A stretch of 59,127 nt of DNA, filler included, from Jimgerdemannia flammicorona (GCA_003990765.1; 2 parts of 2 records of this genome joined end to end with filler, not necessarily neighbours in it); one strand, 5' to 3'. Counted from the first letter of the whole stretch, positions 15,000 to 59,127 are shown. Notes: generated by a model not told the origin, from the letters alone. Made by a program: numbers and translations.

Positions 15000-16720
15000 T
15001 TATGAAGCTATTGATTGCCAATGAGGATATCATAGTTGGTGGTGCTTATAACAATCACATCTACTGGGATGGTAGCTCCTTTTATCTTGATGGGGACTTC
15101 TCAGATTTTGCTAAGGGGGGTAGCTCATGTACCATCTGCTGTGATATAGACCATCTTGGTGGACTCTTCAATGTCCCAGCCTAGGCAGTCAATTGCCTTC
15201 TTACTCATGAGACATTCTCCAGCACTAGTATCAATAATGGCATCAAAGATACAGTCTTTGATCTGACATGGGGTATAGGCTGATGTCTTGCACTGGTCTT
15301 CAGATTCTTCATCTGAGTTCTCGAATTCTTCCTGTGCATTGTGAGCTTCTACAATCTTATACTCTTGATTCTTGGTGATAGTTGTAAGTCCTACTCTCAA
15401 CTGCTGTCTGAAGGCAGGGACTTCAGCTAGCTGTCCAAAGGTGGCATTGACCTTCTGTTCCTTGAGATCCTTGTAGATATCATACTAGTGGATCTTGGTC
15501 TTGTGCAGCTTCTGTTCCTTCTTGCTTTCACTTTCTCCTGAGACTGGAGTAGTGCCTTCAATAATTTGGTGGGCAGCTTCATCTAACTCCATGTCTTGAT
15601 CAATCTCCTTGAGTTGGATCTTGCTTTGAATAATAACAGCTGGGGTCTTCTTTGATCTTCCAACTAGCTTGCTGTTGCTCTTCTTGTCATAGGGCTTGGA
15701 CCAGGTTCTGGTACCTTCAGTAGCAGAGTAGAATTCAAGCTCCTTATAGTATTCTTCATCATCAGTGTCACCAATCTCCTTGATGACTACTATATTGGTT
15801 TGTTCTCTGGTTCTGCTAGTATTGCTTAGTTGGGCTTTGTGTCTCATTTTGGTCATGCAACTCTTTGCATAGTGGCCTTCTTCTCCACATCTGAAGCATA
15901 TGATATTGCATTCTTCTGTAGCAGCTGCAAATATCTGCACTAGTCTCCTGTTGGTGCTTTGGACTTCTCTAACAACATTACCAAGGTGTGCAGTCATCTC
16001 GGCAAACTGCTTGGTGAGTTCTTCCACTGGGTCAGCTTTTGCTGTCTTGGGAGTAGGTGGGATTAGTTGTCTGTTTACAACTGTGGCAAGTAAGATACTA
16101 GTTGGCTTTGATGGCTCCATCTTAATGTCAGTTATTTTCTCCATTGAGTGTTTGACTGAGTGTCTGGCAGTTCAATATCTCTGTGCAAAGACCACTTTCT
16201 GATCAAGGGTTAGTACAGCTGGGGTAGACTGGATTGCTAGGGCAATTTCAGGGTGAACTCCTTTGAGAAAGGTTGAATCTACTATTTGTTCCTTGAGGTA
16301 GTCATCATAGCCAGCCAAGACAATCTGGTGGCAGATTCAGGTATAGAATAAGTTGGAATCTTCACTAAGTCTCTGGTAGATAGTATTGAGTTGATCTTTG
16401 AGAGCTTGCTTGATCTCTTCAATATAATATATTGTTCTGAGGAAGACCTTCATGTTGGCAAGTTTGGCTACACCAGTATCAGCAATAGTGGCTACATTGA
16501 ACTTATCTCTGGCAGGTCCTCTGAGGCTGACTGGTAGAAGGGCCAATTGAGTATCTACACCAAGGGCTCATATGGCAGCAAATTGTTCAAAGTCTTCAAT
16601 GAAGGTCAGGATTGACTCTTCAGTAGTATATCCATAGAATGTGGGGGGATGTATTTTCATCTTATCTTGAATTCTTGGGTGACTCTTGTAGTCAGGGTAG
16701 TTGTTGTGGAGGTTATTCGT
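15000..16720 (-). pseudogene. Gypsy gag (CCHC zinc knuckle) and aspartic protease
   Basis: SLRGPARDKF gag core, CFRCGEEGHYAKSC knuckle (~15856-15899), AIIDTSAGECLMS protease site (~15210-15245). In-frame stops. Confidence 0.88.
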
Positions 16721-36199: not shown

Positions 36200-37200
36200 A
36201 TCTAGCTATACTATGTTATTTGCTTGTCACAATATCAACTTAAACTTCTAACTACAGCTCTCAAGTATATGATTAATATTTTACTAAGAAATATACTTTC
36301 TTACTTAGTGAGAAAAAGAACAAAAGATATCTTAAGTTTTATAAAATCTAAGTTTATAATAATTAAGTTATTTTATAAAGAGCTTATTATATTATATATA
36401 ATTATAAAATTTAATACTATATCTATTCTAGTATTTAGTTGAGCTCAGATTCTATTATAGAGACTTTCAGTTATTTAGCTAAATAAATATTAAATAACTA
36501 AATTTACTATTGATCATTTTTAGATTTATATTAATTTAAATAATATTTCTTTATAAGATAAAGTATAACTTTACTGCTAATATAAAATAGTATTTATATA
36601 AGTTCTAAATGAAAAAAAAATTGAATAATAAATAAAGTTTATAATATTTTATAAGAGTTTATAACTAAAATATAATATTTAGTATTAAAAATATATATAA
36701 ATATTTTAACTATATCTTAATATTGAGAAAATATTTTTAATTATTTAAAATATTCTATATAGAAAGATTATAAAATAACAATAAAAAATAATTAATTAAG
36801 TAAACTATCTTAAAATATTATATTAATAAATATTTAAAATTATAATTTTATATAAATAGTTAAATATATTAAGTATTTAATATATAAATATAATTTTTAA
36901 AATAGAATTTTTTTTTTATAATAATAATTATTATTTATCTATATTAAATATAGTATGATTAAAATTTGTAATAAATAAAATAATTTTATTTTTTAATATT
37001 ATTATTAAAAAAAAAAAAAAATTATAAATTTTAAAAATTAATTAAAAATTGAAATTATTTTATATATTATAAATAAATTAGATATATTATTAATAATATC
37101 CAATTGTTTAAATTAAACTATTTTAACCTAAGTATATAAATATTAAATATTTAAAAAGTTCTAAATTTTAATATCTTATATAAATTTGTCTCTATTTTGA
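36200..37200. other. Extremely AT-rich tract (probably terminally hypermutated repeat DNA)
   Basis: Almost devoid of C/G; ends abruptly at the 3' flank of the intact gene. Confidence 0.6.
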
Positions 37201-37506
37201 AGCATATAATGAATACATGGATATTTATTTCTGACATTATGAAAGTATACTTATCAAATACAACTTATTTGCAAATATATCCTTAATTGTACTTTAGTTA
37301 CTTGACAAGCAGATTATATATTGAAGTACAAATTAATGCAAAGTATGAAGTCCATTTCGCTCTGCCCTCCAATTCCGTGACCACTCAACTCGGCCAATGT
37401 TATCAGCCGACCTTAACTATGTCCCTATTAATTTGACAGAATTAGAATTGAAAATATCAAAAGTCTTTAGAAACCACCGCTCGACGTCGACGTATTTGCA
37501 ATCCGT

Positions 37507-40500
37507 TTAGTAGAGGGCGAAACTTGCCTGATAACACCTATTGCTGCTCAGTCTCTCCAGATCGATTTTAGTTAAATAACGACTGGCAGAACCGTTGACA
37601 AAAGTAAACTCAGATTCTTCAATCTCACGGTGAATTATATTAAGATGCTTTGCAGCTTCTTCATTCAGCCACTTCGCATTCGCAATATCCATCTCTATAT
37701 CTTCAAGATCTCTCAACACTTCATCAATTGTCGGTCGCATTTCAGGGTCAGAATGCCAGCATCTCTTGTAGACATTCAAATATTCAATAGGCGTGCCGGG
37801 AATTGGTTCTTCGCGCAATCCAACAGAGGCAGCAGCAAAAGGCGAATTTTTTGCTGTTCCACGAGGACAATAAGTTGTAGTAAGCTGCCAGAGAAGCGTT
37901 CCAAGGCAGTAAATGTCAGATTTTTGGGTGAGTTGTTCATCCGGATCAATAGCTTCGGGTGGAAGGTATTCCATTCGACCATACGTATCGCCACCAAGTC
38001 CACGGAAATGCTCCACTGTTTTGCCAGTCCCGATGTCGATGATCATTGGGTTCATTCTGTTGGTACTGAGAAACACAATATTTCCTGGGTGCAAGTCATT
38101 GTGGACCAAGCCAGCTTTGTGAATCATTTGCAATCTTCGAGTAATCTCTGCAGCAATTTGCCATACTAGTGCCCATGAGTTTGGTGGAGATTCGTTAAGA
38201 AGTTGTGTAAGGTTGCCACCAGCTGCATACTCCATCACCAAAGCATATGACCCCTTATCGTCCTGCGATAGTCCTACAACTGCTGGAGTTGGTGCTCGGC
38301 CAATATTGTTGCGCAGTCGAACATAGATATTGAGTAGCAACTGATACAGACAAAAATGCACAGCACCGTTAATCCAACATTAGATAACGAGATAAATAAT
38401 CAGCATACAGCTGTAACAGAACGATCTAGACACACCTCATTTCGAAGTTGATCTAATACATGATCACTTCCTTTCAACATCTTCAATGCAAAAACCTTAT
38501 CTATTCCAACGTTCACCTTCGCTTTGTATACTTTGGAAAATCCACCTTCACCTAACTCATCGATCTCGGTGAATTTGTCAAAAGGTATCCAAACTATAAA
38601 TGTGGCAAGTTCGTCAATTTTGAGCATGGCTAAGAATTCCTTGAGCTTTTTGTCATCATTGGGAAGGCCGGACGTAAGTTTCGACATGACATTGAAATCA
38701 GATTGCTCGGAATATTTCCGGATTTGGTCAAGAGTATTTGCAACTGGGAGGTTATCTTGAAGATAAAGCGAGAAGCCTGAAGCTTCTCCTTCATAACCTA
38801 GCGAACATGAACATGCAATGGTCATGAATTGGTTTCAAGCGTTGGTCTAAAAATAACAGTTTGCACAGTGCCGGCATACCTTGGACATACAGCTTCGCCA
38901 ATGTGGTGTTCCGCTTTAATACATTACCGAATAAGCATAATGCCTCGTTATTAATTGAGTTGTCTGTAAATGATTAATATCAAATGAGCAAATATTTCCG
39001 CGGGAAAAGAGGGAACACGTCACAAAGCAGAAAGCAACAATTTACACAATGTCAACGGACCTCCTAGATTAAGTGATGTCAGGGTTGTGTTCCGCCTCAG
39101 AGACCGACCTAGAACGCGTAGACCCTTGTCACCAATCTCATTCTCTAAAGACGAAAAGGAATGGGTGAATGAGGACCAACATGGTGCAGGGATGCGAAAA
39201 ACAGATTACATAGTCAAATCATACTATAAATATTCAGCAAAGTCAGGGTGGTGTTCTTCTCCAAAGCATCGCCCAATGCGATCACTCCTTCGTCGCCGAT
39301 TTTATTCCCTGAATAGAAGATGGTGGATAACTAAACAAGTAGTAACTTAGCCCACAGCCATAAACAGCAAGTCACAAAAAGGAAGACACACTGTCAAGAT
39401 TCATCACCGTCAGGGTCTTGTTCTGCTTCAGAGACCCCGACAGTGCAAGTGCTCCCTTGGCTCCAATTTTGTTTCCTTAAAATGTACAGGGGATAGATGA
39501 GCAGATGGATGAGCAAACAGCAGAGGGCACACGTCCAAAAACTATCGCACAGATATATACAACTGTTCACACATACTGCTGAGATTCAGCACAGCCAGGG
39601 TGGTGTTCAGGTTCAGAGAACTGGCAAGTGCATGCACTCCCGAATCTCCAATGTTGTTGTCTGAAGATGAACAGTGGATGCATGAGCTAATTCAAACGGG
39701 AGTAGGAGTTCAAATCACAGCTGTAAATAACTTTGTACAGAGTTCAAACGTACTGTCAAGGTTTAGTGCAGTCAGGGTCGAGTTCTGCTTCAGAGCCTCG
39801 GCCAGTGCATGTGCTCCCTCAGCGCCAATTTTGTTATCTAAAAACGAACAGGGTATGGATGAACAAAACCGCAGAGGTCGCAATTGAGGATATGTAAAGA
39901 ACAGTTCACACATACCACTAAGCTTCAGCGTCGTTACGGTGACGTTCCGCTTAAGAGAATCGGCCAGTGCGAGCGCTCCGGAATTGCCGATATTGTTGTC
40001 TGCAAATGAACAGTGTATGCATGAGTAAATTAACACAATCGTGAGTTGAAATTCATCACACAGCAGCAAACACCGTTTTCAATTATTCTCATAGCTCAAA
40101 CATACTGTCGACGTTCAGGGCAGTCAAGGTCGTATTCTGTTTCAGTGACTCCGCCAGTGCTCGTGCTCCCTCGTCGCCAATTTTGTTCGCTACAAACGAA
40201 AAGGAGATGGATGAGGAAACATGGACAGGGCACTAGTTCGAATTCAAACAACAACTGCAAAGCAACAATTGGCACAATTCAAACGTACAGTCGAGATTCA
40301 TCGTAGTCAGGGTGGTGTTATATTTTAGAGACTCGGCCAGTGCTCGCGTTCCCGCATCGCCGATCCTGTTGTCTGAAGATCAACGTGGGATGGTAGGCAA
40401 ACACACACAACTTGTGAGGTGGAGCTTGTCACACATTTATGAACAGTTCACACGATTTAACCTACATCCGAGATTCAACCCAGCCAGGGTGGTATTCTGC

Positions 40501-43500
40501 TTCAAAGCTTCAGCGATTGTACCCGCTATTGCATCGGTGATGTTATTTTCTGAACATAAACGGAGGACAGATGAGCAAACATTCAAAATATTGTGTTGTA
40601 ACTCGTCACGCAACTGCCAACATACTGTCTAGGTTCAGGGTACTCAGAATCTGGTTCTTCTTCAGGGAATTGATCCGCTTGAGTGCTTCCACGATACCAA
40701 TACCGATGAGCAGGGACGGTTAACAAAAAAGAACAAATCGTGCGATGAAACTTAATACAAAAACTACAAACAACAGGTCACATAGTCAAACGTACTTTCA
40801 AGATTAAAGGCCTTGTTGCGATCCAGCGATTTGGTCACTGCGTCCTGTTCCGTCTTGCTGATTTTGTTATCTGCAGATGAACAGGAGAGGATCAGCAAAC
40901 ACGCAAAGGTCATGAGTTATATGGCTGCAATTAGCAGTATAAACATACACGTTAGAGTCAGAACAGTCAAGGTCTTGTTTTGCTTCAGAGACTTGTCCAA
41001 TGCGAGTACTCCCATGGTGTCAATGATGTTCCCTAAAGATGAATCGAGGACGGATGAGAAGACAAGCAGAGATAAAATTGAAGCTTGTAACAACAGTTCA
41101 AATATACCGCTGAGATTCAACTCGGTTAATGCTGTGTTCTGTTTAAGAGACTCGGATATGGCAAGAGCTCCCTCGTTAAAAATACGGTTCCCTAATGGAT
41201 GGATAGGCAATAATGCACAAGAAGTGAATTAAAACTTCTAACACAGCTGCAACAACAGTTAACATACATGCAAGTTTGAGTGCAATAATGGTCATGTTCT
41301 GTTTCAGAGTCTCTGCCAGTGCGACTGATCCCTGCGCGCCAATTTTATTTCCTAATAATGAACATGCAAACATCCTAAGATACTGATTTGGAACCAAAAT
41401 ACAGCTGCACACAACAGTTCACAGAATTCAAACATACTATCAAGATTCATCACAGTCAACGTCGTGTTCTGCTTCAGAGCCTCGGCCAATTTGAGAGCTC
41501 CATTTGCGCAAATATTGTTCGCTGAAAATGACCGGGGAGAAAACACCCATAGATTGTGAGTTAGAACTCATCACAGACGGTTAACAACGGTTCACGCAGT
41601 TCATACATACAGGCGAGATTCATCTCGATCAAGGTCGCGTTCTGAATCAGAGACTCAGCCAGCGCGATCGCTCCGTCAGTACCAATCTTGTTTCCTTAAA
41701 TTAACAGGTTATCGATGAACAAACGCCCACTTGTCATGAGTTGGATCTTATCAAACGGCCGCACTTTACAAAGTTCAAACATACTATCAATATTCAAAGT
41801 AGTCAGGATCGTGTTCTGCTTCAGAGATTTAGCCAGCACGAGTGCTCCCTCAGAGCCAATCTTGTTTCCTATATATGGGCAGGTGATCCATGAGCAGACA
41901 CCCACTCGTATTGAGTTAGAACTGATCGCACGGCCGCAAACAACAATTCAAAATACCGCCAAGATTCAACGCAGTCAAGGTCGTGTTCAGTTTAAGAGAA
42001 TCGGCCAGCGCTAGTGCTCCTTGAACGTCAATATTATTTTCTAACAGTGTATCGTTGAGGAAACACTCATAGGTCATGACTTGGAATCTATCATATGTCT
42101 ACAACCTACAGTTCACAGAATTATAACATACCGCCAAGACTCATCGCAGTCAGGGTCTTGTTCTGCTTCAGAGACCGGGCAAGAGCACGTGTTCCCGAAT
42201 CACCGATAAAATTTTCTGGAGATAAACCGGGGATAATTGGGCAAATACAAACATGAGTTGGAGTTCATCACGCAGCTGCGAACAAAGTCCACAGAGTTTG
42301 AACGTACTGTCGACGTTTAGCGCAGTCATGGCCGTGTTCTGCTTCAGAACCTCGGCCAGTGCGTGTATTCCCTCTATGCCAATTTTGTTCGCTATGAACA
42401 AAGAGGGTTTGGACGAGGAAACACATATAGGTCGTTAGTTGGAACTCGTCACACAGTTGCTAAAAACACTTAACAAAGCTCAGACATACATGCAAGGTTC
42501 ATCGCAGTCAGCGTCGTATTCTGAATCAGAGACTCGGCCAGTGCGATTGCTCCCTCATCATTAATGTTGTTCACTAAGGATGAAGAAGGGATGGATTGAG
42601 AAAAATAAACAAGATGTGAGGTGGATCCGTCTCACAGCTGCAAACAACAAGGAATACAGGTCAAACATACAGGCGAGATTTATCGCAATAAGGGTCGTGT
42701 TATACTTCAGAGACTCGGCCAATGCGAGAGCTCCTTCAGCGGCAATATTGTTCGCTAAGAATGAAAAAGTAAACACATATAAGTCGCAAGGTGGAAATCA
42801 CCGCAAAGCTGCAAAAACCAATTTACACAGTTCATACATACAGTCGAGATTCATCACAGTCAGCGTCGTGTTTTGCTTCAGACACTCGGCTAGCGCCCGA
42901 GCTCCCATATCGCCGATCTTGTTGTCTGAAATCCAACAGGGAATGGATAAACAAATACACACAGCTTGCGAGTTGAAGATTATCAAACAACAGTTTAGAC
43001 TAATAAAACATACTATTGAGATTCAGTAGAGTCAGGGTGGTGTTTTGCTTCAGAGATTCCGCGAGTTTGCAGGCCCCTGCATCGGCGATGTTATTGTCTG
43101 AATATGAAGAGTAGATGAATGAGCTAACATGCACAGGAGAGTTGGAACTTATCACGCAGCTGCAAAGAACAGTTCACCATACTGTCGAGATTTAGCAAAA
43201 TCTGAGTCGCCAAATCGAGCACTTCCACGGTAATAATAAAGACGAAGAATAAATGAGCCGGAACACATCACGCAACTACAAACAACTTTCAGAATGTTGA
43301 AACGTACTGTGGAGATTCAGCGTAGCGTTTCGATCCAGAGATTCGGCGAGTGTCCGCTGTACTACTTTGCTGAGTTCGTTGTCTGAAAATGAATAGCGAA
43401 TAGATGAGCAAAAATGCAAAGGTTGTCAGTTGGAACCCAATGACAGCGGCAAACAGTTCACACAGTTTAAACATACATTTTACATTCAGCACTGTTAGGG

Positions 43501-45193
43501 TTGTGTTTAGCTTCAGACACTCGACCAGTGCGAGTACTCCGTTGGTGTCAACGTTGTTCCCTAGTGATGAACAAGGGAACACAGGCCGTGAGTTGGAACT
43601 CAGCACAGTGCTGCAAACAACAACAAATAAATTCAAACATACCGCTGAGATTCAGCGAAGTTAGTGCTGTGTTCTGTTTAAGAGACTCGGCGATAGCAAG
43701 TGCTCCCTCAGTAAAAATGCGGTTCCCTTGAGATATAAATTGGATGGATAAGCGATCATTCAAATGAAACATCTGACAGAAATACAAAAAACAGTTGACC
43801 CAGTTAAATCATACATGCGAGATTCAGCACAGTCAGGGTCGTGTTCTGCCTCAGAGACTCGGCCAGTGCAACTGCTCCCACCGCGCCAATCTTGTTTCCT
43901 AAAAAAGAACATTGGATGGATATACAAATATCCTCAGTTCGTGAGTAAAAGATATTCACATTGTGGCACATAATAGTTCGCACAGTTCAAACATACTGTC
44001 AAGATTCATCACGGTCAACGTAGTGTTCTGCTTCAATGATTCGGCCAATGCGAGCGCTCCCTTATAATCAATGTTGTTCGCTAAGCGTAAAAGGAGATGG
44101 ATGAAGAAACGCTTACAGGTTGGAACTCAACGCACAGCTGCAAATGATATAGTGAAACATACATGCGAGATTCAGAACAGTCAGGGTCGTGTTCTGCTTC
44201 AGATACTCAGCCAGTGCGAGTGCTCCTTCACTTCCTATGTTGTTGGCTAAAAAATTAAAGGACGGATGAGGTACCACGGGCAAGGCGTGATATGAAACGA
44301 TCATGTAGCTATAACAACATTTCCCACATTCCAAACCTACTGTCGAGATTCAGAGCTCTCAGGGATATGATCTGCATCAGAGATTCGGCCAAAGCACGTG
44401 CTCCGTCGCCGCTAATTTTGTTCCCTATAATTTACAGAGTACGGATGAGCAAACATGTATATACAGGTCGCGGTTTGGAATTCATCTCGCATTTCAGCAA
44501 CCAGCGGTTACACGATTTTAACTGACATCGTAGATCCAACTCAGGCAGTAGTGTATTTTTCAGAGCCTCAAGCAGGAGGGGGATATCCTTATCGCCAATA
44601 CGTATTTCTATAGAATAAATGCAAAATGGTATTTAGATACGGCTTAGCACAAACGGTAACAATTTTTTGTACGGTAAATTTAAAAGAGGCAAGTGAAGCT
44701 ACTACGAAAAGTCCCCGCTCTGGTCATATTATTTGAAGGAAACCCAATATAGTGTCCTAGAAGTTGTTGCTAACTACGTACTTGTAAATTGCGTGAGATC
44801 CAAAACCATATTGGTATCCGGCGTGACCTCCCAGGAAGGAGCTTTCTCCATGGTGTTGGTCGGAAAACTGACTCCGGGAACGGGCTCTACAATCAGCAAT
44901 CTGGTGTCATGTTCATGCTTGGCTGCTTGGACTGAGGCCAGTTCCTTGGAGTTGGTGATATCTCCCACACCCAGTCCCTGGCTGACATCTTGGAAAGGGT
45001 TTGTGTTCACGTCATTAACCTGCAAGATGCCTTCTGGTCCGGGTTTAACCCTTTGAATAGGTGGCGTCTCCACCGAATTGACATGGGGCTTTAGGATTGG
45101 TTTAAATAACGAAGGAACCTCCTTAAACTTGAACAAGATGGGTCTAGATAACTTCAGCTTGACTGGAGTATTACGGTTGTCATTCTGTTCCAT
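37507..45193 (-). CDS. Multi-exon LRR (RI/NLRC3-type, 32-34 repeats) + tyrosine-kinase-like non-RD protein kinase, ~1420 aa
   Basis: GT-AG exons mapped by eye. N-terminal: 44782-45193 (frame open to ~45343, true start uncertain). LRR: 44527-44607, 44341-44424, 44163-44246, 43997-44080, 43815-43898, 43643-43726, 43477-43560, 43308-43382, 43014-43097, 42842-42925, 42671-42754, 42490-42573, 42308-42391, 42132-42215, 41957-42040, 41785-41868, 41611-41694, 41438-41521, 41268-41351, 41108-41191, 40949-41032, 40796-40870, 40466-40549, 40289-40372, 40106-40189, 39916-39999, 39754-39837, 39577-39660, 39392-39475, 39225-39308, 39061-39144, 38880-38963. Kinase: 38436-38797, 37507-38340. Repeat consensus xNxIGxxGAxALAESLKQNTTLTxLNLx. 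Kinase motifs WIPF, GEGGFSKVY, ALK, MEYAAGGNL, HNDLHPGNI, DIG, YLPPE, SDIYCLG, CWHSDPEMRP. No stop seen in the joined frame. Confidence 0.92.
38880..44607 (-). repeat. Tandem array of ~170-bp exon+intron units (one LRR each)
   Basis: 34 periodic slots. Introns (~75-110 nt) are themselves related, with recurring GTATGT..TGTGAACTGTT, CAGCTG and GAGTTCCAACTC-like motifs. Confidence 0.95.
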
Positions 45194-45761
45194 TGTAGCT
45201 TTTAGAAGATGACAGCGGGGTGGCTGGGTTTCTACTTGGACGGATCCGTTCCCCAGTCCCAGTTCATCATATTCGGGAGTGACGTGTTGTTCATTGAGAG
45301 AATCTGTATTTCGTCTGATAAACCACGATGCCAAAAACCCACCCTACAATACTCCGGGGTCCAACGTCCCCCGGAAAGAACAAGCGAGCAAGGAACGAAG
45401 TAAAGGGCGAAGCCAATCGAAGAGACAAGAGAAAATCCTAGACGCCTTCCAGCGAACATACGGGGAGCACGACACCAACCGGTAATCAAGCCCGGAAACG
45501 TTATATAGGAAAGACAGAGGTGCATTACTGCGTTGTATTATGCGATGAATAAGTCCTACAACGTGTTCTAAGTTCCTAGCCTAACGTATCATTTCAAATG
45601 CATCGCTGTCATGGCTTCCTTGACTGATCTCGTTATGCCAGAGGTTCTCGAAAAAAAAAAAAAAAAAAAAAAGACGTCATCGACTGAGTCGTTGGTTATG
45701 TTTTCGAATTCGTTCGTGTCAACAAAGTAACGAGTAACTTGCCAGCTCAATTGAAACCATT

Positions 45762-45846
45762 CGTAAACAAGAGATCACCGTGAAAGGTTTCCACACCCTG
45801 ACTCCGTAAACAAGAATTCATCGTGAAAAGCTTCCTCACCCTGACT
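45762..45846. repeat. ~43-bp imperfect tandem duplication upstream of the LRR-kinase
   Basis: CGTAAACAAGAGATCACCGTGAAAGGTTTCCACACCCTGACTC followed by CGTAAACAAGAATTCATCGTGAAAAGCTTCCTCACCCTGACTC. Confidence 0.85.
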
Positions 45847-46259
45847 CAATAAGTTCTTAAGGGTTGCAATATTCCCTTGGGGTCCATAAAGACGATAACG
45901 ATTTTAGTCAACGATCTAGAGAAAGTCTAGGGTCGATCAACACACACATCTACTCTTTGAACGGTCGGCGAACGATACGGGGGAGACGGGTAAAAGTAAC
46001 ACTTTTAGGGTTATGTGAATTTTCTAATCGCAAATGTCCGCATCTTACGTTTGAGACTGTGCAGGATTGATATTCCTGAACGTTGCAAATCGTTGCTGTC
46101 GTCGCTACCATTTCATATATCATTTTTTTACCCCATCAAATCTTCACGACGAGCAACACATTCATGCACTCATGGAATTGATACAATGAAGGCGCGTAAA
46201 AAAAAATATGCCAAATACGAAATCCTATACTCTTTTACACGGAGTGGTCTTCTTTTATA

Positions 46260-47242: not shown

Positions 47243-50200
47243 TTTTTTTTTTTTTTATAGTCACTTGGACTCATCCTTTATTACACCCATCTATCCTATA
47301 TAAATACAATAAACCCACCCCCTACCCAATCCCCCTAGGGGCTCTCTCCTACTCCTTCTCGATGAAACACCACTCTATCGAATACAATTCCCACCCTCCC
47401 ACCACTCTGTATGCATATCCTTGCCACCAAACTGTGCCACTGCCCCCCTGAGAGACCCCAACCTATCCACCATCCAGTCAACAGATCTCCCAACAGCTCC
47501 TCCCATCTTACAACCTTCTTCTGCAGGCTTAGCTGCTACTCCTCCTCAAACACAAATAGCCAATGTCCCACCAGACCCACCCAAACTGCTAACACCCACC
47601 CAACAGTGAGCTAACTATCACCCACCCCCCCCACCAGCCAAGATCTCAAGTTCTCCCAGTAATCCTCTTCACCCACTGGCCTGTGCTCTACACCCAGTCT
47701 ATTCCCTATTTCAACCCAAAAGTCCCCCAAAACCTCACACTCCCCCAGCCAATGTTCTGGCATCTGCACCAAACCCCCAACTTGCCTTACATTGTAACAC
47801 TCCTCACAATCAAAACAGCCACCATCCACCAGATGCTCAGTGTGGAAATTCAGCATGATGTTCCTCCACAGTATTTGCCACCACACTACCCAGAACTTGG
47901 GGGGAAGCCACTGCCACACCTCAGTGCTCCAAGACCAGATATCAGCCCAGTCCCACTCCTCACCAATCCTGACTATCTGCCAACTGCTCAGCCAAAAGTC
48001 TTGGCCAAGACCCTGCTGACACTCCACTCTATTCCCAATATCAAAAGTAACAAGTGGAGCACCCCCCAGAAGCAGTCTATCCCATCATCACATATGTGGA
48101 CCCCACAACACCTCCCCCTCATTGCCTTGCCAGTATAGACCAATTCGGTGTGCTCCATCAACCACTCCCTACTAAAAGCCCTTAAATCGCAGCCACCGAA
48201 TTCCATTGAGCCCTACCAAAGAGAGTAGATCTCCTAAGGACCCTTGGGGGGAGGTTCTCAACTCCCACACCTTCTATATCAGAAGTTCCCAACCTCCTCC
48301 CTATAGTTCAGCTGCTCTCTTCAGCCACCAGGCTTGCAAGCAGTACAACCTCTTAGGGAAATCTACAAGACCAAGACCTCCCCTGTCCACCGGCATCACA
48401 AGAGCATCCCAACTGATCTGAGACCTCCTCCCTGCCCAAATCCAATCTCTAGCCACCTTCATCAGCCTCTTCACCACCCAAGCTGAGAAGTCTAGGTAAT
48501 ATGCCACATACCACAGCTTGGGAAACCAGTATGTATTCAGAATCAATACCCACTCTGCTAGAGAGATATGGTAGCCTCCCCAACCTCGAAGGGCCTCCCC
48601 CCAAATAGTCACCCTACTCTCCCACCATACTCATGGCAAGACAGAACTATATATAGTGAGGAAGATGCCCAGATACCATACCACCTCACCCATAGGGACA
48701 ATTGTTCAAATAATGTCTCTACTCACCAGTCCATTCTCTAGCACTATAGTCTCACACTTATGCCAGTTGAGCTTTGCCCCAGAGTGAACCTCATACCATT
48801 CCACTGTCTCCTGAAGTGCCTTGACATCCACCACAGACCTAAGGCCAACCACCATATCATCTGCAAAGGCCCCCACCTTCCACACAATGCCATAGATAGA
48901 GAGCCCCACTACCTTCTGGCAAATCCTATCCATTAATGGTTCCAATAAGAGAGCATAAAGAATAGGGGACAAGGGGTCCCCCTGAGGAACCCCTCTTCTC
49001 AAGATAAATACCTGACCACAGTGACCATTACACAACAGTGCTGCCTGACTGCCCTTGAGCAGATTTACCATAGAAGCCTGAAATCCAGGAGGAACACCAA
49101 TATGATCCAACATCTTGTCTAGCCAAACCCACTGGACCCAGTCATAGGCCTTCTCCTGATCCAAAAAGACCAACCTCCCATCCAGGCTGCAAGCCTGGGC
49201 CCCTTCAATGACACCATGCACCCAAGAAGTTCTATCTCTAATAAGCCTTCCTCTAACAAAGCCCCACTGCTCCTCCCCCAGCACCTGTTGGGCAACCTTC
49301 TGCAGCCTTGTGATAACCACCTTAGTTACCATCTTCCTGTCCATATCCAAAAGCATGATTGGCCACCAGTTCTTCCAGTCTTCTCTCCTCCCCTTGTCTT
49401 TGTACAATAAAGCCACTAGCCCGAGGTCCTGCTCCCCAACCCATTCACTGCTCTGAAGAACATGATCACAGAGAGCAGTCATCTCCCCCAGAATGCTGGA
49501 GACCTTGACCATCTTCTTCTAGAAGTCCCACAGTAGTCCATCCTCCCCTGGTGCTATTTCAGTTTTAGTTGCTGCAAGGATACTCAGGACTTCCTCACCT
49601 CGCACCAGCAAGGCCAAGTCATCCAGTCCAGCCACTTGTGGCAGCCTCCATTCTCCTAATGCCTCTTCAATAGCCATCTCATCAGTACCCCCTTCATTCT
49701 CACTCCACAAACCCTGCTATCTCTCTTTCAAAACCCCTAGGATTCATTGCTGCCATGCACCATATCCCCATCAGCATCGAGGACTCCATCCCACTGATAT
49801 CTCACCCTCCTAGCATTGAGCAGATGGGATAAATATCTAGTAGGCCGCTCACCCTCCTCAAGCCCCTGCCACCATAGCCTAGCAGCCATACCTTGCATAT
49901 GTACCTCTTCCTCTTCTCTCAATACCTGTTGCAGTTCTAATACCTCCAATCTAATCCACACTAACCTCCAATCCTCCACTCCATCAGAAGTAAGCAAACC
50001 AGTCCAATCCATCTGCAATCTCCTCAGCCTGCTGGAAGTACACCTCGTGCACTTCCTCCTTCTTCTCCCAACTTCTCTCCCAGCCTCTCCCCAATAGACC
50101 CTCGCAGCCTCTTTCAATCTCATCCACTGGATACCCACTGACAAACCCTCATACTGCCAGTGAGAAACTTTTGCCTGAATGTCCTCTACCCATGAATCCC

Positions 50201-53119
50201 ACAACCCCTTCTCAGCCAGTAGGGAGGAGTTGAGGTGCCAATGTCTGGGTCCATCTCCACTTCCCTCAAACTGCCCCTGTCCCAACAGTCCCCAGTGATC
50301 AGACCATGGGCACCATTCCATCTTCAATACCTTCCAGACATCAGACCCCCAGCATTCCGCCATCAGAATCCAGTCAATCCTTATACCCAAGCCATTCACC
50401 CAATACATATAGACCCTAGAGTCACCCCATTGCATTCTACCCATATCCCCTAAGGAGCTCAACCTCTCTACCTCCTCTCATGCATCCAGGCCTCCACTTC
50501 TCCCTCCTGCACTCCTCCCACCATCAGTGTGGTCCAGACGCTGATCCTGAACCATATTAAAGTCCCCCCCAATCACATTGACCCCTTCTGCCAAGAGAAT
50601 ACCCTCCTCCAGTAGCTCCTCAATTCAAGCAATCCTCTCACCCCTAACTGCAGGGCAGTAGCAAGAGCCAACCCTCACTGACTCTCACCCTGGCCACTGC
50701 CAATCATCCCAGACCAAACGGTCACCCCAGCTCCTGATTCCCTCCAAGTCACCTCTACCCTTCCTCACCAGAATCGCCACTTTTCCAAACTAAGCAAAAG
50801 CCCTGCCCCATTCCTTAGTCCACTTCGCCTGATCATCCTCATCCTCACACTATACATCCTGTAGTAAAAAGAGATCAGCCTCCAATTCTTTGAGCCAAGT
50901 AAAAATGTTCTTATGCCATCCAGACCCCCTCAGCCCATTCACATTCAAAGAGAAAATGTTAGTTGTACTGTTCATAAGGAATAATGTTAGAAAGTGATCC
51001 CATCCTCTATAAGTCCACATTCAGCTCCTCCTGCACTAAGTCTAATTCATGTTCAGTAGCTAGTTCCCTTTCCCCAGCTTCCCTTACCTCTAATCCTCCC
51101 AGGAGTTCTACCATTGTCTCATCTTCCCTCTTCTCAAATTCCTCTCAATACTCCAGACAGGCCTCCCTTCAGAGCTGCAAACCATGCCACTCAGCCCAGC
51201 AGTATATTGCCTGCTCACCTGCAGCCACCACCAGCTCTGCCTTCCTCACCTCATCAACCTCATATCCCTCCTCCTTTAAGAGGATTGCAAGAATCTCCCC
51301 CTTCAGTGCCTCCACTACTCCCTCACCATGCAGAATCCTCTCCCAGTGCCCCTCAGGCATAACCTGCAAGTCCACTTCTCCCAATGTATCAGCCGCAAGA
51401 TTATCCATCAACTTGCTCATCCACAGCAAGTTTCCTATCTCCTTCCCTCCAGGAGTCCCTGGCCATCCTGCATCCAATATCATGATGTCAGCACCCACAC
51501 TGGCAGCCTCATCCCACTCCTCCTCAGGGACATCCACCAGCTCATCCTTGCTAGCTGCTACCACCTGGCCCCCTTTCGCCACATCAGGGACCCCAAAATG
51601 CACTTGCTGGGCCCCCTTTATCAGCACATCCTCTGACACCCTTCTCTTTGCAGCCAGGCCCCTCCTGATCAGAGGGGGGGGAGTGGAGTCCAATTCCAGC
51701 TCCCAGACCTTGAAGGTGCCATCAGCAAAAGGGTCCTTGCTCAGCACCTTCCCATCTCCTTCCTTGCCTACCTCCATCTCCCCTACCCCTTTACTAGCCC
51801 AGACACTGGCCTTGATGCCCCCAGATACCTCAGCCCCAACTGTCTTCTTCTTTGCCTCGACTGTCATACTTGCCAGTAGCTCCCTCTGCCTCCTGCACCC
51901 CTGTGCCTGCTCCCACTGCCCCTTGTCCATGCAGATTCGCTTCCCCTCCACAACCTCCAGATGTGTTGACTCCTCATACATCTTCCAGGCCCTCACCCTC
52001 CTCTCTATAGCTCCACTCATCTCCTTCAGCACCTCCAACAAGTCCTCCTCCTCCTCCTCACTCCCCTTCACCCTCGACACCTTACAGATGAATGCCCCCC
52101 ACATCAGCACAGAGGCCAGTCACTTGCCTTCCCTGTGGCCTCCTTTCCTGCTAGCCGAATCCTGACATCAATGTTGTCCATCCTGATCATCATCCCCTCC
52201 CACACTTGAAAGCCAATGTCCACCATATCACCATACTCAATCATCACCTCCTCCACCCTCTTCCTAGTCTCCTCCTCGGTCACTATGGGCATCCCCTTCA
52301 CCAGAAGCTGCACCACTCTGGGGTCTCATCGCAAGCGCCACACCATGTGGACCACCACCTCCCCAACCATGACTCCTCTTCAGTGTCTCATCCAGTGGAC
52401 CAGCCTTCTCAAATCCCACCTTAACTCCCTCCAGACCCTTCAAGAACTTCACTGAGGCCACCCCAGCTACCTGCTTCGAGACAAGCCCCAGAATCATCCT
52501 CACCATTACCACCAAGCCCTGGAAGCACAAGGTCACTGCAAACTCTGAGATTGACTTCTTGAGCAATGGGGTCACCACCAGCCCCATTACACCATCTGCT
52601 AGGTCCCTCTTCCCACATCAGGAACCCCTGCCCCCCCTGGCCATCAGCCGTCATATCTCCTTTTTTTTCCTGATTCCCCATCACTCTCTCATTAACAGTC
52701 ACACCCCCAGCCACAGCACCTCTGGCCCCTACACCTGCACTCCCAGCCGGAGCACTGCCCTCCCTCCCAAGGCTTGCCTTGCCTTTCCCCTCAGCAGTAC
52801 CAGCCCTATTACCAGCTAGCCACCCACTCCCCTTAATCTTGTCAGCGAAGCTCAGGAGACTAGATCTTCCCCCATTGCCACTGGACACTGGTTCCCCTCC
52901 AGAGCCTTTTCCATTCTTCGGTCCTCTAAAAGCCCCCATCCCCAGGCCATAACATAACCCCTTCCCACCTGCTGCCAGTCAAAGGCCCTAGATCTACCTG
53001 ACCTAGTACACACACCTGTATGGTCATTGCTCTCTATATTGCTAGTCACCTTTTACTAAAAACATTGTCAAAAGTGTTGTCTGAGTCTTGTGTCACCTGA
53101 ATGTTGCTGGTGAAAGGTA
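47243..53119 (-). mobile_element. Full-length LINE copy D inserted antisense in ORF1 of LINE E
   Basis: Poly(T) 47243-47256; 16-bp TSD GCCTTTAGAGGGTCAA (47227-47242) / GCCTTTGGAGGGTTGA (53120-53135). RT ORF piece 48706-49512 with GVPQGDPLSP and FADD; ORF2 start ~50975; ORF1 ~50990-53050. Confidence 0.94.
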
Positions 53120-53620: not shown

Positions 53621-56600
53621 GCTGTGGGGAAGGACAAGGCAAGCTTTGGGAGAGGGAGGTCCTCAGGCTGGGAGTATGAGTGTAGGGTCTGGAGGTGTTG
53701 TGGCTGGGGGTGGGACTGCTGATGGAGGTGTGATGGGAAATCAGGAGAAAAAACAGTGGGGCTGGGGCTACCAATTCGGAAAGGGGACCTAGCCAATAGT
53801 GTGACAGAGCTAGTAGTGGCACCATTACTCAAGAAGTTGGTTTCAAAGTTTATGGCTATCTTGTACTTCTGGGACTTGGCAGTGATGGCAAGGATGGTCC
53901 TAGGGCTTATCTTGCAGCAGGTGACTGAGGCTGCCTTGGTGAAGTTCCTGAAAGGGCTGGAGGGGGTGGAGGTGGGCTTTGAGGAGATGGGCCCACTGGA
54001 TGAGGCAATGAAGACTAGAGTGGTGGTTGGTGAAGTAGTGGTCCCTATGGTGTGCTGCCTTAGGTGGGACCCCAGGGTGATATAGCTGCTAGTCAAAGGG
54101 GTGCCTATGGTATTGAAGGTTGAGACTAGGAGGAGGGTAGAGGAGGTGGTGGCAGAGTATAGTGATGTGGTAGATATCAGCTTCCAGGTGTGGGAGGGGA
54201 CAGCAATCAGGACAGGCAATGTGGATATCAGGATTAGGCTGACAGAGAGAGAGGCCACTGGAAAGATGAATGACTGGCCTTCAGTGCTGATGTGGGGGGC
54301 TGTTGTCTGTAGGGTGTTAAGGGTGAAGAGGAGTGAAGAGGAGGAGGAAGACTTGTTAGAAGTGCTGGAGGAGTTGAGTAGTATAGTGAAATGAAGGGCA
54401 AAGGCCTGGAAGCTCTTTGAGGAGACAACATATCTGGAGATTGTGGAGGAGAAGTGTATCTGCATGGACAAGAGGCAGTGGGAGTGGGCACAGGGGTGCA
54501 GGAGACAGAGGGAGCTATTGGTAAGTATGAAAGTAGAGATGAAGAAGAAAACAGGTGTCTGGGGGTATTGAAGCCAGTGTCTGGGCTAGTAAAGGAGAAG
54601 GGGAGATAGAGGCAGGCAAGAAAGGAGCTGGGAAGATACTGAGCAAGGACCTCTATACCAATGGCACTTTCAAGGTCTGGGAGCAGGAGTTGGATACCAC
54701 CCCCCCCCCTCTTATCAGGAGGGGCCCAGCTGGGAAGAGAAGGATGATAGAGGATACACTGATGCAGGGGCCCAGTGAGTACACTTTGGGGTCCCTGATG
54801 TGGCAAAAGGGGGTCAGGTAGTAGCAGTTGGTGAGGATGAGCTGGTGGATATCCCTGAGGAGGAGTGGGATAAGGCTGTCAGTGTAGAAGCTGACACTAC
54901 AATGTTGGATGCAGGATGGCCAGGGACTCTGGGAGGGAAGGAGGTGGGGAACTTGCTATAAATGAGTAAGGTGATGGATAACCTTACAGCTGAGGCATTA
55001 GGAGAAGTAGACCTGCAGGTAATGCCTGAGGAGCATTGGGTGTAGATTCTGTATGATGAGGGAGTGGTGGAGGTACTGAAGGTGGAGATTCTTTCAATTT
55101 TCCTAGAGAAGAAGGGATATGAGGTTGATGAGGTGAGGAAGGCTGAGCTGGTGGTGGTTGCTGGTGAGCAGGCAGCATACTGTTGGACAGAGTGTCATGA
55201 TTTACAGCTCTGGCAAAAGGTCTGTCTAGAGTATCATGAAGACTTTGAGGAGTGAGAAGATGGGGTGATGGTAGAACTTCTGGGAGGGTTGGAGGTACAG
55301 GAAGCTGGAGAAAGAGAACTAGCTGCTGAACATGACTTGGACTTGGTGCAGGAGGAGCCGAATACAGACTTGTAGAGGATGAGATCACAATATATCATTA
55401 TTTCTTATGAACAGTATAACTAATATTTTCTCTTTGAATGTGAATAGGTTAAGGGGATCTGAGTGACATAAGAACATTTTTACTTGACTCAAGGGATTAG
55501 AGGCTGATCTCTTTTTACTACAGGATGTCCAGTGTAAGGATGAGGATGATTGGGTGGAGTGGACTAGGGAATGGGGTGGGGCTACTGCTTGGTTTGGAAA
55601 AGTAGTGATTCTGGTGAGAAAGGGTAGAGGAGACTTGGGGGGAATAAGGAGCTGGGGTGATCATTTGGTCTGGGGAGATTGGCATCAGCTAGGGTGGGAG
55701 TCAGTAAAGGTTGGCTCTTGCTACTACTCTGCAGTTAGGGGTGAGAGGACTGCATGGATTAAGGAGCTGTTGGAGGAGGGTATTCTCTTGAAGGAAGGGG
55801 TCAATGTTCTTGGGGGGGACTTTAATATGGTTTGGGATCAGCATCTAGACAGAACTGATGGAGGGAGGAGTGCAGGGGGGAGAAGTAGAGGTCTGGATGC
55901 ATAGAAGGAGGTGGAGAAGCTGAGCTCCTTAGGAGATATAGACAGAACACAGTGGGGCAATACCAGGGTCTACATATATTGGGTGAATGGCTTGGATACA
56001 AGGATTGACTGGATTCTGACAGCAGAGTGCTAGGGTTCAGATGTTTGGAAGGCATTGGAGATAGAGTAGTATCCATGGTCTGATCACTGGGAACTATTGG
56101 GGCAGAGGCAGTTTGGGGAGAGTGAAGATGGACCTGGACATTGGTGCCTTAACTCCTCCCTGCTGGCTGAGAAGGGGTTGTGGGATTCATAGGTGGAGGA
56201 CATTCAGGAGAAGGTTTCTATCTGGAGGCATGAGGGTTTGTCGGTGGGTGTCCATTGGATGAGATTGAAGGAGGCTGTAAGGGTTTATTGGGGAGGGGCT
56301 GGTAGAGAAGCTGGGAGATGGAGAAGAAAGTGCACAAGGTATACTTCCAGCAGGTTGAGGAGATTATAAATGGATTGGGTGAATTTGCTTACTTCTGGTG
56401 GGGTGGAGGATTGAAGGATAGAGTGGGCAAAATTGGAGATAGTGGAATTGCAACAGATGTTGAGAGAAGAGAAGGAGACTCATATGTGAGGTATGGCTGC
56501 TAGACTAAGGTGGCAGGGGCTTGAGGAGAGTGAGTGGCCTACTAGGTGCTTATCAAGACTACTCAAAGCTAGGAGGGTGAGATATCAGTGAGATAGAGTC

Positions 56601-59127
56601 CTAGATGCTGATAGAGATATAGTGTATGGCACACAACAAATCTTAGGGGTTTTGAAGGAGAGATGGTAGTGATAGAGAAGGGGGTACTGATGAGGTGGTA
56701 ATTGCAGATACTCTAGGAGAGTGGGGGCCACCGCAAGTAGCCTGACTGGGTGACTTGATCTTACCAGTACAAGGAGAGGAGATCCAGAGTGTCCTTGCTG
56801 CAACTAAACTTAGAACAGTACTTGGGGAGGATGGATTACCATGGGACTTCTGGAAGAAGATGGTAAAGGTCCCCAGAGTTTTGGGTGAGATGGTTGCTCT
56901 CTGTGACCATGTTCTTCAGAGTGGTGAGTGGGTTGGAGAGCAGGACCTCAGGCTGGTGGCTTTATTGTACAAAGACAAGGGGAGGAGGGAAGACTGGAAG
57001 AACTGGAGACTGAACATGCTTCTGGATATAGACAGAAAGATAGTGACTAAGGTGATTGTCAAAAGGCTACAGAAAGTTGCCCAACAGATGCTGTGGGAGG
57101 AGCAGCAGGGCTTTATTGGGGGCAGACTTATAAGAGATGGGACTGCATGGGTATATAGTATCATTGAAGGGGCCCAGACTTGTGGACTGGATAGAAGATT
57201 GGTCTTTTTGGACCAGGAGAAGGCCTATGACCAGGTACAGCAGGTTTGACTGGGCAAGGTGTTGGATCGAATTGGTGTTCTCCCAAGATTTCAGACTTCT
57301 ATATTGAATCTTCTAGAGAGCAGTCGGGCAGCAATAATGTGTAATGGTCACCATGGTCTGGTGTTTTTCTTAGGAAGAGGAGTTCCTCAGGGGGACCCTC
57401 TGTCCCCTATTCTCTATATTCTTTCATTAGAGCTATTGATGGATAGGATCCACTGGAAGGTAGTAGGGCTCTCTATTTATGATATAGTGTAGAAGGTGGG
57501 GGCCTTTGCTAATAATATAGTGGTTGGACTTGGGTCTGTGGCAGATGTCAAGGCACTTAAGGAGACAGTGGAATGGTATGAGGCTCACTCTGGGGCAAAG
57601 CTCAACTGGTATAAGTGTGAGACAATGGTGCTAGGGAATGAGTTAGTAGGTGGGGATGTTATTGGAATAATTGTCCCTACTGGTGAGGTGGTGCAGTATC
57701 TGGGTATCTTCCTTTCTATATATGGTTCTGTCTTACTATAAGTGTAGTGGGAGAGCAGGGTGGCCATTTGGGGGGTGGCCCTTCAAGGTTGGAGAGGCTG
57801 TCATATCTCTCTGGCAGAGTGAGTGTCAATTCTGAATATATACTAGTTCTCCAAGCTGTGGTACATAGCCTATCACCTAGACTTCCCAGCTTGGATGGTG
57901 AAGAGGCTGATGAAGGTAGCTAGGGATTGGATTTGGGCATAGAGGAGGTCCCAGATCAGTTGAGATACTCTTACAATACTAGTGGTCAGGGGAGGTCTTG
58001 GTCTTGTGGATTTCCCTAAGAGGTTGCACTGCTTGCGAGCCTGGTGGTTGAAGAGAGCAGTTGAACTACAGGGAGAGAGTTGGATACCTCTGCTGCAGAA
58101 GGTATAGGAGATGAGATCCTCCCCCTGAGGGTCCTCCAGAGATCTGCTCTCTTTGGTAGGGCTGAATGGAAATCAGCAGCTGCAGTTTAAGGGCTTTTGA
58201 TGGAGAGTGGTAGATGGAGCACACTGAATTGGCCTGCACTGGCAAGGTAATGAGGGGGAGGTGATGTGGGGGCCTGGTATGTGGCAATAGGATAGACTGC
58301 TCCTGGGGGGTGCTCTACTTGCTGCTTTCAATATTGGGAATGGAGTGAAGTGTCAGCAGGGTCTTGGCCAGGATCTTCGGCCAAGTGGCTGGTAGGCAGC
58401 AGAGATCAGTGAGGAGTGGGACTGGACAGGTATCTGGTCTTAGAGTACTGAGGTGTGGGGGTGGCTTCCTCCCAAGTTCTGGGTAGTATGGTGGCAAATG
58501 CTGCAGAGGAATGTTATGTTGAATTTTCATACTAGGCATCTGGTAGATGGTAGCCATTTTGATTGTGAGGAGTGTTACAATGTAGGGCAAGCTGGGGGTT
58601 TTGTACAGATACTGGAACATTGGTTGGGAGAGTGTGAGATTTTGGGGGACTTTTGAATAGAAATAGAGAATAGACTGAGTGTGGGGCAAAGGCTGGCAGG
58701 TGAGGGGGGCTACTGGGAGAACTTGATATCTCAGCTAGTGGGGGGTGGGTGATAGTTGGCTCACTATAGGGTGGGTGTTAGCAGTGTGGGTGGGATTGGC
58801 AGGACATTGGCTTTTTGAATTTGAGGAGGAGTGGTAGATGGGGCTGCAGGAGAAGGTATTAAGGTGGGAGAAACTTTGGGGGATCTGCTGACTGGATGGT
58901 GGGTGGGTTGGGGTCCTCCGGGGGGGTGACATTGAGGTTTGATGGCAAGGATCTGTGAGCAGAGTGGTGGGAGAGCAGAGATTGTATTAGACAAAGTGGT
59001 CTTTCATTAGGAAGGGGTAGGGGGGGAGCCCCTCTAGGGGGATCGGATAGGGGGTGGGATCACTGTATTTATATGAGATAGATGGGTATAATAAAGGATG
59101 GAAGTCTAAGTACATAACTATAAAAAA

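Follow-up and report, generated by a model that had tools for sequence, protein, structure and literature searches.

Plant leucine-rich repeat (LRR) receptor kinases such as FLS2, EFR and Xa21 combine a signal peptide, extracellular 24-residue LRRs, a membrane helix and a non-RD kinase. Here we describe a fungal gene on the minus strand of a 59,127-nucleotide stretch of Jimgerdemannia flammicorona DNA (GCA_003990765.1; two parts of two records joined end to end with filler, hereafter the window), whose product resembles these receptors in joining LRRs to a non-RD kinase of the wider tyrosine kinase-like (TKL)/IRAK-like type, but differs from them in having no apparent signal peptide or membrane helix. 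Its LRRs are of the ribonuclease inhibitor (RI) type and are encoded one per exon. From its domain make-up, we consider it reasonably likely that the gene encodes a soluble cytoplasmic kinase regulated by its own LRRs.

The exon layout has close parallels in other lineages. In the sections of PMC6642158 drawn upon here, every 28-residue LRR of the human NOD/NLRC genes has an exon to itself, in line with the preliminary description of this DNA; the exon border falls at a constant point of the repeat, and NLRP3 undergoes alternative splicing of its LRR exons. The corresponding sections of Zambounis et al. 2012 (PMC3341825) report that in Ectocarpus both the ROCO genes and 15 LRR-kinases contain 72-nt exons, each encoding one 24-residue plant-type LRR; the ROCO genes harbour relics and inverted copies of exons as well as hot spots of recombination, no shuffling is described there for the LRR-kinases, and the LRR genes are proposed as candidate immune receptors. 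Among fungi, the portion of Soanes and Talbot 2010 (PMC2939053) used here records soluble LRR-plus-kinase proteins, four in Batrachochytrium and five in ascomycetes, the ascomycete genes being intronless and probably of bacterial origin, and cites Candida Cyr1p as a cytoplasmic fungal LRR protein that binds muramyl dipeptides. Fungal NOD-like receptors (NLRs), in the part of Dyrka et al. 2014 (PMC4986451) consulted, carry near-identical WD40, ANK or TPR repeats with length polymorphism and no LRRs, in agreement with the earlier background statement that they lack LRR sensors. Within these same portions, the fungal genome surveys report neither LRR-based pattern-recognition receptors nor LRRs in NLRs (PMC2939053, PMC4986451). 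Since soluble LRR-kinases and one-exon-per-LRR genes are both known in other eukaryotes, the novelty of the present locus lies in a new combination and not in a new kind of gene.

Frame search together with RNA evidence revealed a single intact 38-exon gene on the minus strand between 37.2 and 45.2 kb (Table 1). In the six-frame translation, a series of short open segments, each with the sequence xNxIGxxGAxALAESLKQNTTLTxLNLx, precedes a kinase open reading frame (ORF); exons were defined by searching for AG...GT-bounded open segments in phase 1 and by inspecting the irregular stretches. Of the 34 LRR-type exons (exons 2-35), 29 measure 84 nt and two 75 nt, and single exons have 81, 60 and 39 nt. 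All 34 are phase 1/1, introns 1-35 are all in phase 1, and the 37 introns (36 GT-AG, one GC-AG) range from 75 to 174 nt. The reading frame of 4365 nt stays open over the 38 exons and, after RNA-based correction of the 3' end, encodes a protein of 1454 residues. The preliminary description had called the gene intact and counted its exons as 29 x 84, 1 x 81 and 2 x 75 nt, which proves exact; its range of 32-34 repeats is explained by the two extra short exons of 39 and 60 nt. Its gene end and stop at 37507 had to be abandoned, as splicing of intron 37 in the RNA moves the stop to 37413-37415.

Transcript evidence was obtained by placing contigs of two RNA runs of one organism, X1 and X2, on the window; X1 shows no differences from it, and X2, a second isolate, differs at about 1% of sites. 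The runs contain 0.46 and 0.32 of the sampled words, respectively, with about 0.43 estimated if exonic words alone were present, and both yield spliced contigs, so RNA is present in each. Among the joints listed (15 of 48, introns outside this set counting as neither supported nor contradicted), those with CT..AC ends (GT..AG on the minus strand) match at least 11 of the 37 predicted introns exactly. Spliced transcripts reach depths of about 20-36 in both runs. X1 record 2 (1262 nt) links exons 37 and 36 to exons 35-33, and X2 record 8 (2801 nt) spans exon 37 to exon 15; because both cross from the kinase into the LRR exons, the LRR-kinase fusion exists on single transcripts. Moreover, offsets 1430 to 2405 of X2 record 8 leave 975 nt between the pieces at 39576-39660 and 41784-42039, which is the exact sum of exons 19-30 only when the 60-nt and 75-nt exons are counted. 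The LRR exons are included as predicted in the transcripts seen. Intron 37 appears as the joint 37423>37527 in one contig per run, with a three-base ambiguity, and its splicing exchanges the last six codons for three. Contigs end at 45228 on the 5' side and at 37203-37220 on the 3' side.

Two further features of the transcripts were recorded. Intron 17 (41869-41956; 88 nt, not a multiple of three) is kept in X2 record 8, while the other covered introns are spliced out. X2 also shows four long-range joints within 41485-44186, with skips of 313-2700 nt, sides of 21-30 nt, non-GT-AG ends and high depths, and word depth peaks at 9240 over 43793-44083. The simplest explanation for these joints and the depth peak is an abundance of paralogous LRR transcripts with short stretches in common with the gene.

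Twenty-nine repeats of the array are exactly 28 residues long and follow the RI-type pattern LxxLxLxxNxIxxxGxxxLxxxLxxNxx, with N2 and L16 conserved in 100% of these full repeats, I4 and N19 in 97% and G8 in 93%; in all, about 33 RI-type LRRs fill residues 138-1059. The Pfam LRR_6 model, tried on two single exons, gave 25.6 bits for exon 28 (cut-off 23.4) and 14.8 bits, below the cut-off, for the other. Against solved structures, a two-repeat piece matched best 5irm/5irl (E 6e-8), entries labelled 'Uncharacterized protein' in the database that we take to be rabbit NOD2, and then LRRC34 and an RI-like protein. The earlier assignment to the RI class, with one repeat per symmetric phase-1 exon, is supported. 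Against long proteins, a two-repeat read-through piece returned 22 matches, the best being Mortierellaceae proteins with LRR_6 only; six named matches are of this kind, two carry NACHT and one TIR. The sole kinase among the 22 is P0074, a metagenome protein with LRR_6, kinase and PH domains whose kinase belongs to a different family.

In devoting one exon to each 28-residue RI-type LRR, the gene resembles in layout animal NOD1, NOD2, NLRC3 and CIITA as described in the cited sections of PMC6642158. Unlike the animal NOD/NLRC proteins, the LRR-kinase has neither NACHT nor CARD, uses a fused kinase as its output and carries about 33 repeats. It likewise shares with the Ectocarpus LRR genes, in the sections of PMC3341825 used, a single symmetric exon per LRR and fusion to a signalling domain, yet its exons measure 84 and not 72 nt, it shows no relic or inverted exons in the window and no sign of recent recombination, and it belongs to another kinase family and lineage.

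To describe how the array arose, we compared its units with one another. The 29 full exons have a mean pairwise DNA identity of 0.64 and a maximum of 0.857 (exon 7 versus exon 22), with identities of 0.68, 0.72 and 0.52 at codon positions 1, 2 and 3. Introns inter-align at 0.60 identity versus 0.39 for shuffled introns, and after scaling to the respective controls, conservation is about the same in introns as at third codon positions. Intron and exon copies are thus homologous and equally diverged, which means that the multiplied unit was exon plus intron, as DNA, and that the copies are old. Special constraint on the introns was considered and rejected, their scaled conservation being close to that of third codon positions. 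Exon pairs at offset 15 reach 0.709 identity versus 0.642 overall, a value attained in 0 of 5000 permutations, and an irregular pair (a 75-nt exon plus a short exon) occupies the equal place in both 15-exon blocks; together, these observations point to an ancient block duplication relating exons 6-20 to exons 21-35. The one-exon-per-repeat array grew through tandem DNA duplication of an exon-intron unit, including a 15-unit block, and at intron and third-codon sites its copies are now as divergent as old paralogues.

A DNA model of the LRR exon gave 32 matches in the 59-kb window, and chance is excluded because all of them are exons of this one gene on one strand; the same model detected no relic, inverted or inactivated LRR exons in the window. 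Tandem Repeats Finder reported no array within the gene, as the units are too diverged. Of the short exons, exon 10 was identified by homology with exon 25, with which it has the CGTGGAAG acceptor context in common, and LRR-like DNA continues for 17 nt on the upstream side of the acceptor of exon 25, suggesting that this exon is a truncated former 84-nt exon. The symmetric exon structure is most likely a fossil of array growth. The locus offers a very clean example of how tandem copying of one exon-intron unit can build up a repeat domain, and its NOD/NLRC-like layout raises the question of ancestry or convergence.

The equality of scaled intron and third-codon identity, the position of the gene among retroelements and the retention of intron 17 in one contig would fit the view that, in a region rich in transposons, the gene model is an artefact or the gene is in decay, and that the array is neutral tandem DNA that is open by chance. 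A 4365-nt frame that remains open over 38 exons with 37 canonical splice sites, spliced transcripts in two runs, and 97-100% conservation of N2, L16, I4 and N19 over the 29 full repeats, at a ratio of non-synonymous to synonymous variation (pN/pS) of at most 0.05, largely refute this explanation, and we hold it to be very improbable.

The kinase is recognizable from exon 37 alone, which matches Pfam Pkinase at 5.7e-22 (78.8 bits) and PK_Tyr_Ser-Thr at 3.1e-21 (76.3 bits). The solved kinase nearest to it is RIPK4 (7.8e-18), and RIPK1, DLK, TAK1 and MLK are also among the top matches, but FGFR4, a tyrosine kinase, ranks second and PknB appears as well. The domain retains the GEGGFSKV glycine loop, the VAIK-type Lys (FALKM), the alpha-C Glu, the HND Asp, the loop Asn and the DIG Asp. 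Its catalytic loop, HNDLHPGN, is non-RD and has His at the position of the Ser/Thr-kinase Lys, and DIG and PPE replace DFG and APE. The preliminary description had proposed a TKL, non-RD kinase, a proposal that the HND, DIG and PPE motifs of the translation and the Pfam scores above cut-off support, and had placed it directly behind the LRRs; the order is right, but a linker of about 80 residues with a clade-conserved juxta-kinase motif intervenes.

Little else could be recognized outside the repeats and the kinase. The N-terminal 137 residues encoded by exon 1 gave no Pfam match above cut-off, no homologue among proteins of 241-2000 residues and no Atlas match. By a hydropathy heuristic, no signal peptide or transmembrane segment is apparent (highest 19-residue Kyte-Doolittle mean 1.52; mean of the first 25 residues -1.05). 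Pfam found no NACHT or NB-ARC domain in exons 1, 36 and 37 or in upstream ORFs of at least 110 residues, and no ROC-COR in the gene, exon 36 included, or in those ORFs; the last LRR ends only about 80 residues ahead of the glycine loop. The proposal of a protein without signal peptide, transmembrane segment or NACHT/NB-ARC thus agrees with hydropathy and Pfam alike. By its features, the LRR-kinase is not an NLR, a ROCO protein or a membrane receptor kinase; it has RI-type LRRs and a eukaryotic protein kinase domain that belongs to an Endogonales kinase clade.

This combination allows three further comparisons. With the LRRK/ROCO and RIPK families, the protein has in common an N-terminal repeat domain ahead of a TKL-like kinase and a soluble nature, but it lacks ROC-COR, death domain and CARD and reads HNDLHPGN in place of HRDLKxxN. 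Compared with the ascomycete LRR-plus-kinase genes, as far as the portion of PMC2939053 cited describes them, it is set apart by 37 introns, RI-type LRRs and an Endogonales-specific kinase. Like the fungal NLRs of the cited part of PMC4986451, the protein combines a modular, putatively sensing repeat region with an effector or signalling domain, within a family of combinatorial architecture, whereas the NACHT/NB-ARC core is absent and the repeats are 64% identical instead of near-identical.

HMMER searches with the kinase exon recovered 113 representatives at E <=1e-30. The closest kinases, at 45-57% identity, include proteins of Endogone sp. FLAS-F59071 and Jimgerdemannia flammicorona (e.g. 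Endogone P0002 and P0085; Jimgerdemannia P0119 and P0131), followed by those of Gigaspora, Rhizophagus and Geosiphon at 30-37%. An alignment of 16 sequences revealed the features common to the Endogonales clade and the present kinase: the juxta-kinase motif, HxDLHPGN, IIDIG, YLPPE, SDIYCLGTLLWQL and a C-terminal SxFxFxxG tail. The loop His is invariant in all 16 aligned members and also occurs in a Geosiphon relative with HRD and DFG; the non-RD state is a trait of the whole kinase clade and not specific to the LRR fusion. Exon 36 aligns with Endogone P0002 at 43% identity over 86 residues (BLASTP, E 5e-21), and in P0002 a caspase-like Peptidase_C14 domain lies N-terminal to the kinase, in contrast to the LRRs found here. 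In P0086 (residues ~183-210), the ORF reads through an intron after the alpha-C 'NE', at the same place as intron 36, so this intron position is conserved in the clade. Against long proteins, in a set without the window's own protein, the kinase C-lobe gave 59 matches, of which only P0002 exceeded 34% identity, and a metagenome scan with the clade alignment retained 77 loci, of which only L001 (1.5 kb) was close, at 44% identity.

The LRR-kinase architecture is rare in fungi. Literature searches found no LRR-kinase in Endogonales or Glomeromycotina, supplementary tables (e.g. Table S8, PMC2939053) lying outside their scope, and PMC12574304 does not mention LRR or NLR; as far as the main texts searched extend, the architecture is not in print for Mucoromycota. 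Because gene callers that are blind to introns catch the kinase exon alone, most metagenome protein sets do not reveal genes built in this way.

If the gene encodes a soluble kinase regulated by its own LRRs, the two irregular pairs would split the solenoid into arcs of about 7, 13 and 10 repeats, whose concave face may bind a partner and thereby control the attached kinase through autoinhibition or scaffolding, as in LRRK/RIPK-type kinases. Given the non-RD loop and the His in place of the catalytic-loop Lys, such regulation by partner binding appears likelier than regulation by activation-loop phosphorylation. The kinase probably represents a common signalling module of the Endogonales clade that is combined with varying N-terminal modules.

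Several observations weigh against this reading. The HNDLHPGN, DIG and PPE motifs are unusual, so that full activity, as judged from the translation, is not assured, and three aligned relatives (P0002, P0131 and P0175) have lost the catalytic Asp. LRRs were found in none of the 53 closest kinase relatives, many of whose records are single-exon fragments and thus weak evidence either way, and neither the DNA nor the protein model of the LRR exon matched any of the 77 metagenome loci, mostly short contigs or fragments. The 39-nt exon 10 has no direct joint among the RNA joints listed. Finally, X2 differs from the window by 18 listed coding differences, 10 non-synonymous and 8 synonymous, and this proportion suggests rather relaxed constraint.

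Part of this evidence would suit a different protein: an adaptor or pseudokinase of ordinary cellular signalling, with its LRRs as a scaffold, a kinase-like domain of little or no catalytic activity, and no role towards non-self. His for Lys in the catalytic loop, DIG for DFG, PPE for APE, the three relatives without catalytic Asp and the moderate ratio of 10 to 8 between isolates all fit such a scaffold, as does the presence, beside the top match 5irm/5irl, of the structural axonemal proteins LRRC34 and DRC5 among the RI-type chains near in sequence. However, the glycine loop, VAIK Lys, alpha-C Glu, HxD Asp, loop Asn and DxG Asp are all retained, and a loop His that is invariant in 16 clade members and present in the Geosiphon HRD/DFG relative indicates a family trait and not decay. 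We therefore consider a pseudokinase scaffold rather unlikely and continue to favour a kinase under the control of its LRRs.

Variation along the repeat bears on a further possibility, raised in the preliminary description: a cytoplasmic immune sensor-kinase that detects endobacteria or other non-self and whose binding surface is actively diversified by skipping, duplication or swapping of exons. The most variable repeat positions are 1 (a split codon), 28, 24, 7, 6, 10, 5 and 3, which are x positions in the beta strand and in the loop after it, with pN/pS of about 0.6-1.06; the framework positions N2, I4, L16 and N19 do not exceed 0.05. Such a surface pattern is compatible with a diversified sensor, but at saturated divergence a pN/pS near 1 fits relaxed constraint and positive selection alike. 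Since all 34 LRR exons are phase 1/1, each could be removed or duplicated in frame, and unequal recombination did take place in the past, as the duplicated block of 15 exons shows. A non-RD kinase, a clade relative with a caspase-like domain, many other LRR-like transcripts with short stretches common to the gene, and the precedents of NLRP3 LRR splicing and Ectocarpus ROCO exon shuffling, as given in the cited sections of PMC6642158 and PMC3341825, point the same way.

Nevertheless, the repeats are old (mean identity 0.64, maximum 0.857) and their introns equally diverged, which sets them apart from fungal NLR repeats with their high conservation and from Ectocarpus exons with their recent shuffling; beyond the 32 in-gene matches, the LRR-exon model detected no exon in the window that is a relic, inverted or inactivated. 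The X2 contig fits identical exon lengths for exons 15-37, and the long-range joints listed for X2 look like paralogue cross-matches or assembly artefacts and not like exon skipping. Of the four non-synonymous isolate differences within LRRs, two affect repeat position 14 and one each positions 11 and 17; all four lie on the helix side and none on the concave face. The Ectocarpus LRR-kinases themselves, in the sections of PMC3341825 cited, show no shuffling. Diversification by splicing or unequal recombination, as first proposed, thus fares poorly on the age of the copies, the lack of relic exons in the window and the comparison of isolates, and we judge an actively diversified sensor to be unlikely. 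Within 37200-45500, X2 departs from the window at 28 single bases; 11 of these changes are C>T on the plus strand and hence G>A on the coding strand, which may be ordinary strain variation or mutational bias.

For the LRR-controlled kinase that we favour, an immune role is plausible by analogy, considering the NOD2-like LRRs, the RIPK-like non-RD kinase, the caspase-bearing relative and a lineage that hosts endobacteria. In a bolder view, Endogonales may possess an NLR-independent, LRR-based form of cytoplasmic surveillance, in which a lineage-specific non-RD kinase, as the common signalling module, is fused to a sensor (here the NOD2-like RI-type LRRs) or to a death module (the caspase-like domain of a relative), and in which the LRR-kinase would sense bacterial or other non-self molecules, for instance from the Mollicutes-related endobacteria of these fungi; equally bold is the idea that the 84-nt phase-1 RI-LRR exon may be the same module as that of animal NOD/NLRC genes and predate the split of fungi and animals. 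Taken jointly, these two ideas are speculative and have a low chance of being correct. The LRR-kinase nevertheless provides a concrete, clonable candidate for a fungal cytoplasmic sensor in a lineage that hosts endobacteria and forms mycorrhizas.

Table 1. Exons, intron 37 and duplicated blocks of the LRR-kinase gene in the window (exon coordinates in the gene sense)
Feature	Position	Strand	Evidence or remarks
Exon 1, 412 nt	44782..45193	-	Start codon (ATG) at 45193; N-terminal 137 residues; RNA contigs X1 record 5 and X2 record 9 span 44782-45228
LRR exons 2-8	43477..44607	-	GT-AG, phase 1/1; nhmmer matches at exons 3-8
Exon 2 (81 nt)	44607-44527	-	
Exons 3-8 (84 nt each)	44424-44341, 44246-44163, 44080-43997, 43898-43815, 43726-43643, 43560-43477	-	
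Irregular repeat pair, exons 9 and 10	43183..43382	-	Exon 9 (75 nt), 43382-43308; exon 10 (39 nt), 43221-43183
LRR exons 11-23, 13 x 84 nt	40949..43097	-	RNA joints 42215>42308, 42391>42490
Exons 11-17	43097-43014, 42925-42842, 42754-42671, 42573-42490, 42391-42308, 42215-42132, 42040-41957	-	
Exons 18-23	41868-41785, 41694-41611, 41521-41438, 41351-41268, 41191-41108, 41032-40949	-	
Irregular repeat pair, exons 24 and 25	40626..40870	-	Exon 24 (75 nt), 40870-40796; exon 25 (60 nt), 40685-40626; X2 record 8 offsets
LRR exons 26-35, 10 x 84 nt	38880..40549	-	RNA joints listed for 7 introns here, both runs
Exons 26-30	40549-40466, 40372-40289, 40189-40106, 39999-39916, 39837-39754	-	
Exons 31-35	39660-39577, 39475-39392, 39308-39225, 39144-39061, 38963-38880	-	
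Block duplication of 15 exons, exons 6-20 and 21-35	38880..43898	-	Offset-15 identity
Exon 36, 362 nt	38436..38797	-	Linker with juxta-kinase motif, glycine loop GEGGFSKV, FALKM Lys, alpha-C Glu; RNA joints on both sides
Exon 37, 813 nt	37528..38340	-	Kinase C-lobe (HNDLHPGN, DIG, PPE), then conserved C-terminal tail
Intron 37, 103 nt, GC-AG	37425..37527	-	RNA only; donor GCAAGT and acceptor AG read from the sequence
Exon 38	37203..37424	-	Last 3 codons, TAA stop 37415-37413, at least 190-210 nt of 3' untranslated region; X1 record 1 (37220-37423), X2 record 7 (37203-37423)

A second, unrelated small kinase gene lies at 5080-5970 on the minus strand of the window, with at least three exon-like ORFs (5691-5969, 5286-5690 and 5080-5376). 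Its middle piece matches Pfam Pkinase at 6.5e-16, its loop, HYDIKHNN, is also non-RD, and the LRR-exon model found no LRR exons near it in the window.

Remains of mobile elements also occur in the window. A stretch at 13155-16171 (minus strand) resembles a long terminal repeat (LTR) retroelement, with RVT_1 (1.7e-23), a zinc knuckle and a dUTPase ORF at 14105-14581 (3.4e-26), and a dUTPase within a fungal retroelement is uncommon. Non-LTR remains resembling long interspersed nuclear elements, with RVT_1 and Exo_endo_phos ORFs, occur at 22298-22660 (minus), 48709-50477 (minus) and 55488-57246 (plus) and sit in GC-rich blocks with strong GC skew. A fragment of a piggyBac-like transposase (DDE_Tnp_1_7, E 3.3e-6) is located at 2468-2821 on the plus strand. 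A short way upstream of the 5' end of the LRR-kinase gene, there are a run of 24 A at 45652-45675 and two copies of a 43-nt unit at 45762-45847 (86% matches); the run and the repeat could be the tail of an element inserted in the promoter region.

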